In this document: piece by piece, positions 2,335-6,613 of the stretch | Position numbering within the stretch: the stretch's first letter is position 1 | How the letters are laid out: every line of letters begins with the position of its first letter | Origin: a virus | Lineage: Duplodnaviria > Heunggongvirae > Uroviricota > Caudoviricetes | IMG/VR virus record: IMGVR_UViG_3300018488_000078 | Strand: one strand, 5' to 3' | DNA length: 11,494 nt | Program-made: the position numbers and the translations under genes | Notes under the pieces: generated by a model | Told to the model about the DNA's origin: nothing | The model's database searches: none | The model's input: only the letters and a program-made list of their open reading frames with translations

Positions 2335-2469
2335 CGCCTTTATGAAAAGACAGGAAAAAATAAAATTTAAAAACAGTACATTACGAATGCTCAGACCTAT
2401 CGTTTAAAGGAGTCGCAATACACACTGCAATACACGATTATTTATAAGATGAGCGGCATCCGTCATAAA

Positions 2470-2708
2470 GCTGGTGGATGCTTTTTCTATGCATATATGC
2501 ACAGTTTTAGTGGGCGTTAATGTCGATATAGGGATCCCCATATCGAGATTGGATACCTGGCTTTTTTCCGGTTAACCTTTAATCAGGCTGGTGGGCTTTA
2601 CCTGTTTTGTATGAGTGGTCATCATGACCATGTCATAACAAAAACCCCATATTCGTGGTTTTTCTGTGTCGGGCTATTCTGTCGTTGCTGTGCTGATTTG
2701 GCTGGTGG
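2470..2708 (+). repeat. Cluster of three Chi octamers (5'-GCTGGTGG-3') at 2470-2477, 2587-2594 and 2701-2708, same strand, spaced 117 and 114 bp
   Basis: Octamers read directly from the sequence; the second and third share the 12-mer GGCTGGTGGGCT. They lie in non-coding DNA between ORF93 and the truncated B gene. Confidence 0.85.
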
Positions 2709-2763
2709 GCTGAATCATCATTACGGCGATGCAGCTATGTAGACGTTCCGGCCTCCTCAAATT

Positions 2764-2925
2764 GAGGATTGTGGAAGAATCAATGGGTTAGTCTTACTTT
2801 CCCGACATCCCCCAATGGGGGTTTTCGAAACAATCAATAGCTTAGGCTTACTTCCCCGATTTCCTGCATTGCAGGTTTTCGAAATAATCAATGGGTTAGG
2901 CCATCGTGCAATTTTGCACTTTGCC
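2764..2925. repeat. Three tandem units of about 54 bp, each carrying a perfect IHF consensus (WATCAANNNNTTR) at 2768-2780, 2822-2834 and 2876-2888
   Basis: AATCAATGGGTTA, AATCAATAGCTTA and AATCAATGGGTTA sit exactly 54 bp apart; units 2 and 3 also share GGTTTTCGAAA immediately upstream. A palindrome CCTCAAATTGAGG (2745-2757) precedes the array. Confidence 0.7.
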
Positions 2926-3149
2926 AGCCAGCGCAATGTCGCGTTATCAGTCCTCGGATGTGAGGGATGTAGCCAGCTTTTCCCCCAGTGGGGGATATCC
3001 AGCACCGACGGCTTAACTGTGCGTGCCAGCACAAGGTAGCCTTGAACTACTTACTGCATCCCATCTTACAGGCCGTGCCTTCCTGCTTAACTTTTTGCAA
3101 TGCAACAAGTCAGCCAGCGCAATTTTGCGTTATCGGGAATATCAGCAAG

Positions 3150-3431
3150 TTACCGCCGCAATCGTTCCGGCTTCTTCCACTGGTAAGTATTTTTCGCGCT
3201 CTCCCTCCGTTGTTGAGAACGGCGACGATATGCCAGCAACTCAAGGACTCTTGTTCGTATGTTGCGCATATCCACGCCGTTAAGCTCAATACCGTCACGG
3301 CGCATCACCTCAGCCACTACACGCACATAATTATCTGCGGTCACGCTGTCCGGCTGCGTGGCCTGTTCGTCATGCTGCTTGCTGATTCCACAAGCACGGC
3401 GGATTAATCGCAGTATTTCGGATTCAGTCAT
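3150..3431 (-). CDS. Hypothetical protein, 93 aa, in the position where a large terminase gene would follow the small terminase
   Basis: ATG at 3429-3431 starts 11 nt after the TerS stop; weak Shine-Dalgarno, so translation may be coupled. Product MTESEILRLIRRACGISKQHDEQATQPDSVTADNYV... has no recognisable domain by eye. It is far too short to be a large terminase. Confidence 0.45.
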   Translation of the reverse strand: MTESEILRLIRRACGISKQHDEQATQPDSVTADNYVRVVAEVMRRDGIELNGVDMRNIRTRVLELLAYRRRSQQRRESAKNTYQWKKPERLRR

Positions 3432-3442
3432 AGCGTACTACG

Positions 3443-3985
3443 TTACTTATCTTTATTCGGCTGCAACTTATCCGGTACGTTTCCGGCAGTTTCCATCAGA
3501 TAATCGGACAGCATCAGCGGTATGTTTTCGTCAAGTTTTGCGCATGCGTTACAGGCTCTGATAACTTCTTTTTTCAGTCCATCCAGCATAGACGGCTTCA
3601 TGTCGGGAAACTTCCTTGTCATGGCAAGCGGCAGGCTGTCCATGATTGAAGAAATCTGACTCGCCAATTTTGAAAGCACGTATATACAAAACGCTGTATC
3701 AATAACGTCGCCGCGTTCGCGCTCGTTTTTAAGCTCCTGCGCCTCTGCCTGTGCTGTCAGCAATCTGATCCTGACTCGTAGGAGTTCATCATCATCAATC
3801 TCGCCTTTGTCGTCTGTAATCTGGTTAATTGCATTGCTAACCCGATTGTCTATTACGCTGGCAACATCATAAAACGCCTCGCGGCCTTTACGTTCAACGG
3901 GAGTCACTCCCCACTTGTCGAACGCTGTCGCACTTACACGGCAGCTTTGCGCCATGTTTTTTTTGTTCATCAGGTGCGATTTCAT
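3443..3985 (-). CDS. Terminase small subunit, Nu1-like, with divergent N-terminal (DNA-binding) region
   Basis: C-terminal two thirds align by eye to lambda Nu1: RLLTAQAEAQELKNERERGDVIDTAFCIYVLSKLASQISSIMDSLPLAMTRKFPDMK versus lambda RLTRAQADAQELKNARDSAEVVETAFCTFVLSRIAGEIASILDGLPLSVQRRFPELE. The N-terminal ~70 residues differ. Start chosen at ATG 3983-3985 (GGGGA 6 nt upstream); GTG at 3995-3997 and ATGs at 3968-3970 and 3953-3955 are alternatives. Confidence 0.85.
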   Translation of the reverse strand: MKSHLMNKKNMAQSCRVSATAFDKWGVTPVERKGREAFYDVASVIDNRVSNAINQITDDKGEIDDDELLRVRIRLLTAQAEAQELKNERERGDVIDTAFCIYVLSKLASQISSIMDSLPLAMTRKFPDMKPSMLDGLKKEVIRACNACAKLDENIPLMLSDYLMETAGNVPDKLQPNKDK

Positions 3986-4096
3986 CAATATCCCCACTTA
4001 AGTAATGTTTCAGGTTGGTGTATTGGCTTTATCTTTTCCTTTTTATTCATAGAGATAGAGCGAACAACAAAACCACCACCAGCACCCGAAAAAGGC

Positions 4097-4160
4097 TCAT
4101 AAATAGCGAAAACCCGCGAGGTCGCCGCCCCGTAGCCTACCGGATCACCGGAAAGGACCC
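4097..4160 (-). other. Lambda-type cos site: cosQ-like segment (4141-4160) and cosN with 12-nt cohesive-end sequence GGGCGGCGACCT (4119-4130); cosB side divergent
   Basis: Minus strand reads GGGTCCTTTCCGGTGATCCGGTAGGCTACG-GGGCGGCGACCT-CGCGGGTTTTCGCTATTTATGA. The cohesive-end 12-mer and flanking cosN sequence match the lambda left end as I recall it, and the upstream segment matches the lambda right-end/cosQ region except for a few bases. Below 4097 the sequence departs from lambda cosB. Confidence 0.85.
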
Positions 4161-4186
4161 GCCAGCCAGAGCGGGCCCTAATTTCA

Positions 4187-4570
4187 TCAACCAATCAGCT
4201 TATAGCGACCATCCCGTGCATTGCGGCGTACACGCTCAATCTTGAGGCATAGCGCCGCATCTGGCTTTTTTGGGACAGGTACGCGGCAATATTCAGAAGC
4301 GCGAGGAATATTATTTATCCAGTCGATCACTTCACTTAAATACCAGGCCTTACGCCCTTCCGTAACCTGCACACGCTCCGGGAACTCTCCACTAGCCTCA
4401 AGGTTTAGCAGTGTACGACGACTCAGGGTTGTAATTTCCATCACCTGATTCATATCAACAAGGCGCTCGCTTAAACACATTTTGTCAGCGATAGCTTTTA
4501 ATTCCTCTACAGCTGGATTCGGGTACATCATTTCGGCAATTGGCTTAAGGTCATTGTAATCATTCTGCAT
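4187..4570 (-). CDS. AlpA-family (MerR-like HTH) DNA-binding regulator with ~40-residue N-terminal extension
   Basis: ATG 4568-4570 with GGGGGA upstream. Segment VMEITTLSRRTLLNLEASGEFPERVQVTEGRKAWYLSEVIDWINN fits the AlpA/prophage CP4-57 regulator HTH pattern. Stop at 4187-4189 lies 26 bp from cosQ. Confidence 0.65.
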   Translation of the reverse strand: MQNDYNDLKPIAEMMYPNPAVEELKAIADKMCLSERLVDMNQVMEITTLSRRTLLNLEASGEFPERVQVTEGRKAWYLSEVIDWINNIPRASEYCRVPVPKKPDAALCLKIERVRRNARDGRYKLIG

Positions 4571-4581
4571 TGTATCCCCCT

Positions 4582-4923
4582 TTACACACGAGCCAGCGGC
4601 TGAACAGAAATACCTGAGCCAACAAACGCTGCAACCTTTACTGACAGTTCTTTAACAGACTCAGGCCAGTTCAGAGCATCAACATTTAAGACACCTGTCT
4701 TATAGACCTGAGCCTGTGTTTTTTTCGCGGTGTCGATTTGTACAGCGGAAACATAAACCGCTTTACCTACGCTCGAACCATCCCATACCACCAGTGCACC
4801 TGTTGCATCTTCCTGCATCAGTGGCGTAAATGCAGGAATTACCCCTTTATTAGCTGAAAATATCCCCAGCGTAGTCACCAGTGCTTCAGTGCCAGCCATG
4901 AGTTCAGTGTAATGAGTAGCCAT
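4582..4923 (-). CDS. Head decoration protein, gpD-like, divergent from the lambda-type D at 1-251
   Basis: ATG 4921-4923 with GGGGGAG upstream. By-eye alignment to lambda gpD: PAFTPLMQEDATGALVVWDGSS...YKTGVLNVDALNWPES...AAFVGSGISV versus [22 protein letters not shown]...[16 protein letters not shown]...TAFAGTAISIV. Confidence 0.8.
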   Translation of the reverse strand: MATHYTELMAGTEALVTTLGIFSANKGVIPAFTPLMQEDATGALVVWDGSSVGKAVYVSAVQIDTAKKTQAQVYKTGVLNVDALNWPESVKELSVKVAAFVGSGISVQPLARV

Positions 4924-4932
4924 TGCTCCCCC

Positions 4933-5979
4933 TTAGCCAATGCGAACGGTAACAAAACGATTGATGCGGGCCGGTATTGGCTGTGGTGCTGAATGTGTCT
5001 GCACATATTCAATAGCCGGATCACCAGGCACAATATAGTTTTTCGGTGCAAGTTCGGCTTTAGTCAGCCCCATTCGGATTAGCTCCGGATCCTGAATACC
5101 GCCATAGGCGACAATCCCCTGAAGAGCCGTATTGCCAAGCACCATCAAATCAGGATCAAGGAAATGTTTTTCTGTTCCGTCCTCGTCGGTATAACGTCCG
5201 CTGTAAACAACAATCGCAACATCGCCCATATACCCTTTAAAACTCACCGAATCACCAAGGTCTTTAAGGGCCGTTTCCAGTTCGGAATTAGAACCACGAC
5301 GGGTATCCAAAGCCTCTTTTATCGCTCTGAATGAACGGTATTTCTTCCATACATTACCACCCATAATGATGATATTAGTGACGCCCTCACTAAATTCTGC
5401 GTAGCTCTCAATATCATCATTTGGATCAAAAGTTTCTTTATCCTTACCTGACCACTCAGTACCGCCAGACTGAGTGATGATATTTTGTGGTTTTATATTC
5501 CAGTCCAGCTCATAACGTTCAATACCATCGCCCTCAATGATATTTTTCCCCGTTGTGATTGCCTGAACAGCAAGCCATTCAATACGTGCACGAATAGCTT
5601 TAGCCTGATTTACAATCGCCTGTTTAACTTTAATATTACGCGCCCCAAAAGCATTGTATTGCTCAGGTGACACACCAGCAGGGCGCACAGCTAACTTATT
5701 TGGATCAATGCTGCTTTTCGGCTTCATATAACCTGGACGAATTGTTTTTGATTCGTATCCCTCATCTCGTGAAACTTTACTGCCCACCATAGGAGAGCAA
5801 AACGCCGCGATCGGGATATTTGGATCGTCGATCGTATCAAGAATAATGTCTCTCGATTCAAACATTACCGAGCGAGTGAAAAACAAACTGGTAAACAACG
5901 CATTTAATTTTTTTTGCACATCTTCAGCATTAGCCACCTGCACAAGCTGTGTAGGCGAATATAAATCAACCATACTCAT
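4933..5979 (-). CDS. Major capsid protein, lambda gpE family, divergent
   Basis: Shared blocks with lambda gpE as recalled: NIITQSGGTEWSGKDKETFDPNDDIESYAEF versus NITQSGGTEWSKRDKSTYDPTDDIEAYA, and LDTRRGSNSELETA in both. N-terminus MSMVDLYSPTQ parallels lambda MSMYTTAQ. ATG 5977-5979 abuts the GAGG motif, so the ATG at 5971-5973 (6-nt spacer) may be the real start. ORF-track extension to 6060 is not used. Confidence 0.85.
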   Translation of the reverse strand: MSMVDLYSPTQLVQVANAEDVQKKLNALFTSLFFTRSVMFESRDIILDTIDDPNIPIAAFCSPMVGSKVSRDEGYESKTIRPGYMKPKSSIDPNKLAVRPAGVSPEQYNAFGARNIKVKQAIVNQAKAIRARIEWLAVQAITTGKNIIEGDGIERYELDWNIKPQNIITQSGGTEWSGKDKETFDPNDDIESYAEFSEGVTNIIIMGGNVWKKYRSFRAIKEALDTRRGSNSELETALKDLGDSVSFKGYMGDVAIVVYSGRYTDEDGTEKHFLDPDLMVLGNTALQGIVAYGGIQDPELIRMGLTKAELAPKNYIVPGDPAIEYVQTHSAPQPIPARINRFVTVRIG

Positions 5980-6144
5980 CCTCTTTACATTCATTACAAA
6001 TAATTGTGAATATATTCTATTACCGATGTCTGCTATGCGAATACATGCAACCAAGTGCAATGTTGTATAAAATATGCCGTAACAACTTCAGTGCTGATAA
6101 TTCGTGTTAATGTATTTACTTCCTTTGGTCGGGATTTATGTAGC

Positions 6145-6184
6145 ATGCCGGAAAATCTATTTTTTTCCGGCATCTTTTTGTTTG
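6145..6184 (+). terminator. Stem-loop (11-bp arms ATGCCGGAAAA / TTTTCCGGCAT, 7-nt loop) followed by CTTTTTGTTTG; terminator-like on the plus strand only
   Basis: Read directly: arms 6145-6155 and 6163-6173, T-tract 6174-6184. On the minus strand the hairpin is not followed by a U-tract. No plus-strand gene is annotated upstream, so its role is unclear. Confidence 0.35.
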
Positions 6185-6190
6185 CAGAAT

Positions 6191-6613
6191 TTAAAACGGT
6201 ATATTATCGCCGTACGGATCATCATTCCCCGACTGTTGTTTTGCCCTGTTCAGTGCGTCAGTGGCCTGCCCCTGCTGGCCTTTTTTGCCGCCCGGTCGCG
6301 CCGTTCGCGCACTGATTACGCTGTCTGCGATAACCTGCCAGCCCCGCCGCGTTTCGCCGTTCTGGCCTGTCCACTGGCTTACCTGCATGTTACCCGCCAC
6401 GCTCACCAGTTCGCCTTTGTGGTGTTTTGCCAGTGCGTCGGCCTGTCTGCCAAACGCCAGGACGGATAACCACATCGTCGCCGTTCCGTCATCTGCCTGG
6501 CTGCACGGCAGGGGAACCGCCATACTCGCCATCGCCATTTGTGTCCCTTTGCTGGTGGTCTTTAACTGCGGGTCAGCCACCAGCCGCCCGTAAGCCGCTA
6601 TCTGTGCTGTCAT
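6191..6613 (-). CDS. ssb: Single-stranded DNA-binding protein (SSB) with acidic C-terminal tail ending DNIPF
   Basis: ATG 6611-6613 overlaps the upstream stop (ATGA). Glycine/glutamine-rich linker and C-terminal ...DDPYGDNIPF resemble the E. coli SSB tip ...DDDIPF. Confidence 0.8.
   Translation of the reverse strand: MTAQIAAYGRLVADPQLKTTSKGTQMAMASMAVPLPCSQADDGTATMWLSVLAFGRQADALAKHHKGELVSVAGNMQVSQWTGQNGETRRGWQVIADSVISARTARPGGKKGQQGQATDALNRAKQQSGNDDPYGDNIPF

Follow-up and report, generated by a model that had tools for sequence, protein, structure and literature searches.

The subject of this analysis is a cohesive-end packaging site (cos) and an adjoining gene for a small terminase subunit (terS; protein, TerS), found in an 11,494-nucleotide stretch of viral DNA, IMG/VR record IMGVR_UViG_3300018488_000078; "the window" below means this whole stretch. 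The window is 100% identical to the chromosome of E. coli EC93, in which a satellite of 10,900 bp interrupts the portal gene, B, of a lambda-like prophage. The satellite carries genes for an integrase, an AlpA-type regulator, a BRO-N protein, an Icd-like protein, a D5-type primase, a single-stranded DNA-binding protein (SSB), an E-like capsid protein, a D-like decoration protein and a second AlpA-like protein, together with cos, terS and an open reading frame (ORF) of 93 amino acids (aa); genes for a large terminase subunit (TerL), portal, protease, tail or lysis functions were not found in the 10.9-kb element. A size within 10-20 kb, genes read mostly in one direction, the int, alpA and primase genes and the lack of lysis and tail genes are those of a phage-inducible chromosomal island (PICI), and judged by this content the element is a Gram-negative PICI of the helper-embedded kind (HE-PICI). 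Identity as a capsid-forming PICI (cf-PICI) was considered and rejected, since such an element is expected to bring its own portal, protease, head-tail connectors, HNH protein and TerL, and only the E-like, D-like and TerS genes are present. The helper prophage encodes a TerL 99% identical to lambda gpA and a Nu1 nearly identical to lambda Nu1, and its cos, 12.7 kb from the satellite cos, is lambda-like throughout, cosB included.

The cos site and the small terminase

Window coordinates are given on the minus strand, from which both cos and terS are read, and base pair 1 of cos is window position 4130. The locus contains the following features.

4154-4160, minus strand: cosQ, GGGTCCT, at -30 to -24 from the left cohesive end, the lambda spacing
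4141-4161, minus strand: block of 21 bp around cosQ, identical to lambda
4097-4134, minus strand: block of 38 bp identical to lambda, cosN with its flanks, positions -4 to +34
4119-4130, minus strand: 12-nt cohesive end GGGCGGCGACCT
3986-4096, minus strand: satellite-specific cosB, bp 35-145, of simple N15-type architecture
4063-4080, minus strand: R3-like site GGTGGTGGTTTTGTTGTT, bp 51-68, a single G/T triplet-repeat and putative binding site of the satellite TerS
4011-4025, minus strand: second conserved block of cosB, CAATACACCAACCTG, bp 106-120
3443-3985, minus strand: terS, with its ATG at 3985 (bp 146), encoding a small terminase of 180 aa of the Nu1/N15 gp1 family
Layout of TerS: N15-type winged helix-turn-helix (HTH), residues 1-50; central oligomerisation region, 66-127; C-terminal tail, 128-167, with an extension of 13 aa

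The first-pass annotation had held that the cohesive-end 12-mer, the flanks of cosN and cosQ are those of lambda, and the identical blocks of 38 and 21 bp bear this out; the match is far beyond chance, with three mismatches in the spacer between cosQ and cosN. Similarity to lambda collapses at bp +35 and beyond, although the order cosQ, cosN, cosB, terS is the one seen in lambda and N15. The cosB side had likewise been described as unlike lambda, and divergence does begin at this point, but the sequence is not an unrelated one, being N15-like instead. In cosB the R3, R2 and R1 sequences of lambda, repeated R sites and the IHF consensus were sought and none was present, and neither cosB nor terS contained an N15-style remote rR2, further R-like repeats or an IHF consensus. 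The N15 counterpart of the R3-like site is GGTTGTTGTTT at bp 50-60, and R3-lambda and R3-N15 were mapped to bp 50-65 and bp 48-60, respectively (PMC9026076, PMC4669245). The likeness to the cosB-N15 and gp1 system (Feiss et al. 2015, PMC4669245) thus comprises a single R3 with a G/T triplet-repeat at an equal distance from cosN and no IHF, R2 or R1 sites. N15, however, is an autonomous phage: it encodes a TerL of its own in an overlapping gene, its cohesive end departs from the lambda one at 2 of 12 positions, and its TerS tail is 80% identical to that of lambda. In the window satellite, by contrast, the cohesive end is that of lambda, TerL is missing and the tail has diverged.

The R3-like site was compared across related satellites. 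In seven of them, taken from E. coli at four integration sites and from Kosakonia, Superficieibacter and other Enterobacteriaceae (four or more genera), the 18-mer GGTGGTGGT[G/T]TTGTT[G/A]TT occupies exactly bp 51-68 while the neighbouring bases vary. It recurs in the same register, in only three sequence variants, at 52 related cos loci of IMG/VR (terS being readable in 47), and over 59 satellites from several genera the site is nearly invariant. The cosQ 7-mer stands at -30 to -24 in 51 of the 52 loci and is off by one base in the remaining one. The cohesive end takes six forms in the same loci (GGGCGGCGACCT, GGGCGTCAGGCG, GGGCGGAAGGCG, GGGCGGCAGACG, GGGCGTCGACCT and GGGCGGAGACCT) and a seventh, GGGCGGCAGACT, in the Kosakonia satellite; the changes fall mostly in the right half, bp 7-12, while the R3-like site and the TerS DNA-binding domain are common to all. 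Such variation beside a constant R3-like site suggests that satellites exchange the cosQ-cosN segment with different helpers. In strain SCEC020022 the cosQ-cosN spacer of the satellite is that of its helper, a hint that the two cos sites have recombined with each other. IMG/VR contigs with an end exactly at the cohesive end were sought as evidence of cutting, and none was found.

The second conserved block of cosB, at bp 106-120, may serve as an accessory site for TerS or as a promoter or operator element of terS; a scan of 3100-4700 for promoters and terminators gave no signal. The core CAATACAC of this block resembles the GCAATACACA repeats near the attachment (att) sites described below, a resemblance that may be coincidental.

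Over its full length TerS shares 38% identity with lambda Nu1, in an alignment that reaches the last Nu1 residue, and its homologues start MKSHLMNKK. PHROG 57 covers residues 1-176 (E=5e-51), and Pfam Phage_Nu1 (PF07471) gives 85.8 bits against a cut-off of 30 with a match confined to residues 66-148. A profile of the satellite family matches the lambda TerS DNA-binding domain (6hn7_B, E=0.0055, positions 6-84); a PDB sequence search with the single protein returned no meaningful match, and the family profile alone reached that domain. From the 6hn7_B and PHROG 57 matches, the N-terminal domain is thus homologous to that of lambda though of another specificity class. Its difference from Nu1, claimed at first pass, is real in that identity is 38% and the Pfam match begins only at residue 66, but homology has to be added to it. 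The identities by region are as follows.

DNA-binding domain (residues 1-50): satellite and lambda Nu1, 38%; satellite and N15 gp1, 59%; N15 gp1 and lambda Nu1, 34%
Central region (66-127): satellite and lambda Nu1, 52%; satellite and N15 gp1, 52%; N15 gp1 and lambda Nu1, 71%
Last 40 aligned residues (128-167): satellite and lambda Nu1, 37.5%; satellite and N15 gp1, 37.5%; N15 gp1 and lambda Nu1, 80%

The recognition helix of the satellite protein, TAFDKWGV, shares 7 of 8 residues with that of N15, QAFDKWGV, and the lambda helix reads RTIQNWQE. The motif (I/L)P-x-x-L-x-(D/E)-Y, with which the tail ends ahead of the 13-aa extension, is common to the satellite, lambda and N15 and is missing from a 21-type TerS. 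Among the IMG/VR loci the DNA-binding domain is nearly constant, with 11 close variants, and the tails separate into three or more deep classes, including one with 60% identity to the lambda tail. For terS as a whole the ratio of nonsynonymous to synonymous substitution (dN/dS) is about 0.2, and for its DNA-binding domain 0.05-0.12; the gene is under purifying selection. The tail far exceeds the DNA-binding domain in synonymous divergence, which indicates recombination. Variable tails on a constant domain would fit a design in which exchangeable TerL-docking tails are mounted on a fixed DNA address. The R3-like site and the TerS DNA-binding domain are co-conserved across genera.

The cosB-terS cassette and its relatives

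The PICI EcCIIHE3034 has the same cosB as the window and a TerS 81% identical to that of the window. Its DNA is 98-100% identical to that of EcCICFT073 on either side of a sharply bounded replacement (L011 16100-18400 versus L013 26660-28800), whose left edge lies at about bp +34 of cos and whose right edge lies about 145 bp after terS. The replaced segment consists of cosB and terS in EcCIIHE3034 and of cosB and rppA in EcCICFT073. Because the flanks are identical to this degree, cosB-terS and cosB-rpp are alleles of one slot, and cosB and terS move as a single cassette. Cassette aside, the two islands form a natural near-isogenic pair of PICIs, which allows a direct comparison of both strategies, and the allelism of terS and rpp bears on the open question of the origin of Rpp.

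RppA and RppC of EcCICFT073 were described earlier (Fillol-Salom 2019, PMC6739421; Murialdo & Feiss 2022, PMC9026076), and a lambda-type cosN and cosQ joined to a foreign cosB is a published hallmark of E. coli PICIs that has been read through Rpp (PMC6739421, PMC9026076). The Rpp PICIs share with the window the gene order of an E-like gene, a D-like gene, one further gene, cos, a specificity gene and the 93-aa ORF, as well as a lambda-type cosQ and cosN followed by a non-lambda, single-site cosB at about bp 48-68. The slot of the Rpp type is occupied here by terS, which follows directly on a PICI cos whose cosQ and cosN are helper-type and whose cosB is not. The (ACC)3 at bp 55-63 of the EcCICFT073 cosB is the exact reverse complement of the R3-like core (GGT)3 at bp 51-59 (window 4072-4080), and it is this (ACC)3 stretch that was reported identical in four Rpp-type PICIs. 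The proteins themselves are unlike: at 180 aa the window TerS is a complete homologue of Nu1 and has a tail of the TerL type, whereas Rpp is a tail-less protein of 135-153 aa (PMC9026076). BLASTP of TerS against RppA showed no similarity, the satellite-family profile did not match the RppC chain of 6hn7 at E<=10, and PHROG 57, which covers the whole satellite TerS, matches RppA in the DNA-binding domain only.

A further comparison is offered by the pathogenicity islands of S. aureus (SaPIs), whose TerS_S is likewise a satellite-encoded TerS homologue; the window TerS would resemble it in pairing with helper TerL and in recognising a site that only the satellite carries. It differs in that SaPI packaging is of the headful (pac) type, TerS_S belongs to an unrelated TerS family, and its partner, Ppi, blocks the TerS of the phage; an equivalent of Ppi was not identified in the satellite. 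Helper-embedded PICIs, for which lambda gene B is a published target gene, were reported by Tommasini, Mageeney & Williams in 2023 (PMC10111431), and their model element 11capE, unlike the window satellite, has no terS, and the paper gives no specificity analysis of its cos (PMC10111431). In the 2018 paper of Fillol-Salom, the islands of IHE3034 and 18098 were merely noted to 'encode TerS' (PMC6092414). PICIs with a foreign cosB, TerS-encoding PICIs (2018), helper-embedded PICIs (2023) and a satellite TerS in SaPIs are therefore known already; in the searchable literature, nothing was found that analyses or tests a full-length satellite TerS of the cos type, its N15-type specificity or its allelism with rpp.

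The terS family occurs in 765 of 5426 complete E. coli genomes (14%), O157:H7 included, and a scan of species-representative genomes gave only six terS loci. The closest phage TerS is N15 gp1, at 47.6% identity, and in the collections searched no TerS of a phage or phage-plasmid exceeded 48%. Homologues at about 40% identity belong to phages with an overlapping TerL, and the clade at 57% identity or more, which extends across genera, consists of satellites only. A TerL-sized ORF after terS was found in none of the 47 IMG/VR satellite loci with a readable terS and in none of the Kosakonia, Superficieibacter and Enterobacteriaceae loci, and this absence of TerL next to terS distinguishes the satellite clade from the phage TerS genes.

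Proposed packaging by the motor of the helper

In lambda, TerL is placed for the nicking of cosN by TerS sitting on R3, packaging runs from cosN toward cosB and Nu1, and termination requires cosQ and cosN, cosB being dispensable. Work on N15 has established that a chimeric TerS made of the N15 DNA-binding domain and the lambda tail is functional with lambda TerL on cosB-N15 (PMC4669245), and that N15-specific DNA is not packaged by the lambda or 21 terminases (PMC4669245). With its lambda cosQ and cosN, N15-type R3 and N15-type DNA-binding domain, the satellite is a natural analogue of this N15/lambda chimera. It carries the cutting site of lambda together with a recognition site and a recognition protein of its own, probably so that the phage motor loads satellite DNA, a trick known in outline.

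Based on these likenesses, we consider it rather probable that the satellite TerS and the R3-like site redirect the helper TerL, making packaging of the satellite dependent on its own TerS and not on helper Nu1. In the proposed mechanism the satellite retains helper-type cosQ and cosN, the places where helper gpA nicks and terminates, and a single N15-type R3-like site (bp 51-68) stands in place of the helper cosB. The N15-type winged HTH of the complete satellite TerS would bind this site, and TerS dimers bound there would position the lambda-type gpA at cosN. Satellite concatemers would then be cut and translocated from cosB through terS, att and int onward, with termination at the next satellite cos. 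Four satellite copies come to 43.6 kb, about 90% of the lambda length, and roughly four copies of 10.9 kb would thus fill a lambda-sized head, unless the satellite E and D homologues form smaller heads. By analogy with the N15 cosB, helper Nu1 would not be expected to recognise the satellite cosB, and packaging would therefore need the satellite TerS.

Redirection of packaging to the own cos had been put forward in the first-pass annotation as well, partly on the ground that the C-terminal region of TerS aligns to Nu1 and so binds gpA. The idea is strengthened by a satellite that lacks TerL, a swappable cosB-terS cassette, a co-conserved site and purifying selection, but the C-terminal argument for it is weak: the alignment does reach the last residue, yet the tail is 37.5% identical and it is the central region, at 52%, that is best conserved. 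In addition, the strategy is of a kind already published.

Several observations weigh against redirection by the satellite TerS. The TerS-type PICIs of IHE3034 and 18098 were transferred at up to about 10^2 from their native strains, versus 10^3-10^5 for EcCICFT073 (PMC6092414, Table 1). The tail, the seat of TerS-TerL specificity in lambda and 21, is 37.5% identical to that of helper Nu1 (N15 and lambda, 80%), which makes the tail the weak link; furthermore, the same lambda-type helper TerL is accompanied by two different tail alleles in the two portal-embedded examples (n=2). Given a divergent tail and two tail alleles in the same helper type, that TerS binds gpA is something we infer. In this comparison of tail class with helper TerL, most members of the TerS family lie at chromosomal sites without a defined helper. 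The AlphaFold2 model of TerS is of low confidence, with a predicted local distance difference test score (pLDDT) of 62 and a predicted template modelling score (pTM) of 0.30; it orders the secondary structure as strand, helix, helix, strand, strand, helix. A Foldseek search of this model against the PDB returned nothing at E<0.1, MerR-like regulators being its top, non-significant entries. Finally, the satellite TerS may fail to discriminate against the helper.

The main rival is a mode of action like that of Rpp, in which satellite TerS and helper Nu1 form mixed oligomers, the Nu1 tails bringing gpA and the satellite domains giving cosB specificity; helper packaging would additionally be poisoned. 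It agrees with the stronger conservation relative to Nu1 of the central oligomerisation region (52%) than of the tail (37.5%), with the exact rpp slot that terS fills and with the finding that Rpp acts through the helper TerS (PMC6739421). Against it, the satellite protein has kept a full-length tail under purifying selection (dN/dS of about 0.2) with the conserved (I/L)P-x-x-L-x-x-Y motif, and some terS alleles have a lambda-like tail; nor does TerS show sequence similarity to RppA or RppC, and Rpp has 135-153 aa and is tail-less (PMC9026076). We regard this mode as possible, at odds that clearly favour redirection through the protein's own tail.

Still less probable is that terS is a passenger or relic, a captured late gene of a helper with no role, and that the helper terminase packages the satellite inefficiently through the lambda-type cosN and cosQ. 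Helper late genes do get captured by PICIs (PMC10111431), plasmids with the EcCICFT073 cos, which has no lambda cosB, are still moved by lambda at a reduced level (PMC6092414), and TerS-type PICIs were poor in the transfer of 2018. A passenger gene is hard to reconcile, though, with an intact ORF under purifying selection, with a satellite clade that is at least 57% identical across genera yet no more than 48% identical to any phage TerS, or with a nearly invariant R3-like site amid variable flanks and cohesive ends. Ordinary mosaic lambdoid phage DNA, with the TerS and cosB of an autonomous phage that has a matching TerL, is suggested by an ordinary Nu1-family protein that RefSeq calls 'terminase small subunit', but it can practically be dismissed, as the element is att-bounded inside portal gene B and has no TerL, portal, protease, tail or lysis gene, and a search for the same TerS and cosB in an autonomous phage with its own TerL, named at first pass as the decisive counter-finding, gave a phage or phage-plasmid TerS no more than 48% identical at best.

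Two routes of motor theft are known, that of the staphylococcal islands, through a headful TerS of their own, and that of the E. coli PICIs, through Rpp riding on the helper TerS. If redirection by the satellite TerS is true, a third route is added, in which a complete cos-type TerS acts with a private R3 site placed beside the cutting site of the helper. A constant DNA-binding domain and site with swapped tails would mean that DNA specificity and motor specificity evolve separately. The strategy is unsurprising in principle, yet it is widespread and directly testable.

The first-pass annotation had further proposed that cutting in the integrated state packages leftward into the head genes. 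The direction is right, for the cosB side faces lower coordinates, where the 3' half of the portal gene, C, D and E lie, but productive packaging of this kind is unsupported, since cos packaging needs a second, correctly spaced cos, and cos phages are said not to carry out lateral transduction (2026 paper, PMC12829572). In the helper-embedded geometry the satellite and helper cos sites are co-oriented, 12.7 kb apart, with identical cohesive ends and cosQ. In concatemers of the excised composite, the satellite TerS might start at its own cosB, run through the late, tail and early regions of the helper and end at the next helper cos, giving a hybrid of about phage length; this is speculative, and we hold it to be doubtful. 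If true, such hybrid packaging would be the cos-type equivalent of lateral transduction. It would also open a physical path by which helper late genes could be captured into the region directly after terS, and by which satellite and helper could exchange cosQ-cosN segments and TerS tails.

Other features of the satellite

The remaining features of the element are as follows.

2333-2340, strand not assigned: att core ATCGCCTT, 8 bp, where the right-hand end of the satellite meets the 3' part of portal gene B of the helper
EC93 locus L001 23934-23941, outside the window: the other copy of the att core ATCGCCTT
3150-3431, minus strand: 93-aa ORF directly after terS, 76% identical to the ORF after rppA in EcCICFT073 (PHROG 1561), a conserved flank of the cassette
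4187-4570, minus strand: gene for an AlpA-family HTH regulator, directly upstream of cos
4582-5973, minus strand: satellite head genes
4582-4923, minus strand: D-like decoration gene
4933-5973, minus strand: E-like major capsid gene, 43% identical to a lambdoid helper E and 55% to EcCICFT073 c1499

Both att ends are flanked by GCAATACACA repeats (window 2411-2435, L001 23749-23804), which probably serve the integrase as arm sites, the 'doubled motif' described in PMC10111431. The EC93 helper's gene E for the major capsid protein (L001 9539-10564) contains an internal stop and is a RefSeq pseudogene; the E-like and D-like genes of the satellite are intact. In EcCICFT073 and EcCIIHE3034 the gene just upstream of cos encodes a 137-aa protein that is like the C-terminal, Nu3 scaffold-like part of the head protease (PHROG 53; in EcCICFT073, L013 27083-27496), and this protein has no similarity to the AlpA-family regulator at the same place in the window.

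The satellite is rich in Chi (GCTGGTGG). Ten copies occur in the window versus 0.41 in shuffles, all ten inside the satellite at 2470-10814; three of them are co-oriented within 240 bp (2470-2708), and one, at 4076-4083, overlaps the R3-like site. In six other PICIs the Chi density is about 0.6-1.2 per kb (loci L011, L013, L014, L015, L016, L006), whereas 66 kb of DNA from lambdoid helper prophages has no copy and chromosomal flanks have 0.06-0.48 per kb. Because the satellite has no gam gene, protection from RecBCD is proposed, and the Chi sites may shield rolling-circle or linear satellite DNA; a paper on Chi sites in PICIs was not found in the literature searched.

Two sets of repeats were also noted. 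The unannotated 800-bp tail of the satellite contains three tandem repeats of 54 nt at window 2748-2909, each with a 5-bp hairpin that is kept by compensatory changes at three pair positions; these repeats had no Rfam match and were not seen in the other PICI loci checked, and an Rfam scan of the whole window gave no match. Just downstream of the primase gene, two direct repeats of 27 nt, 85% identical to each other, lie at 7089-7115 and 7176-7202 and are likely an iteron or origin region.

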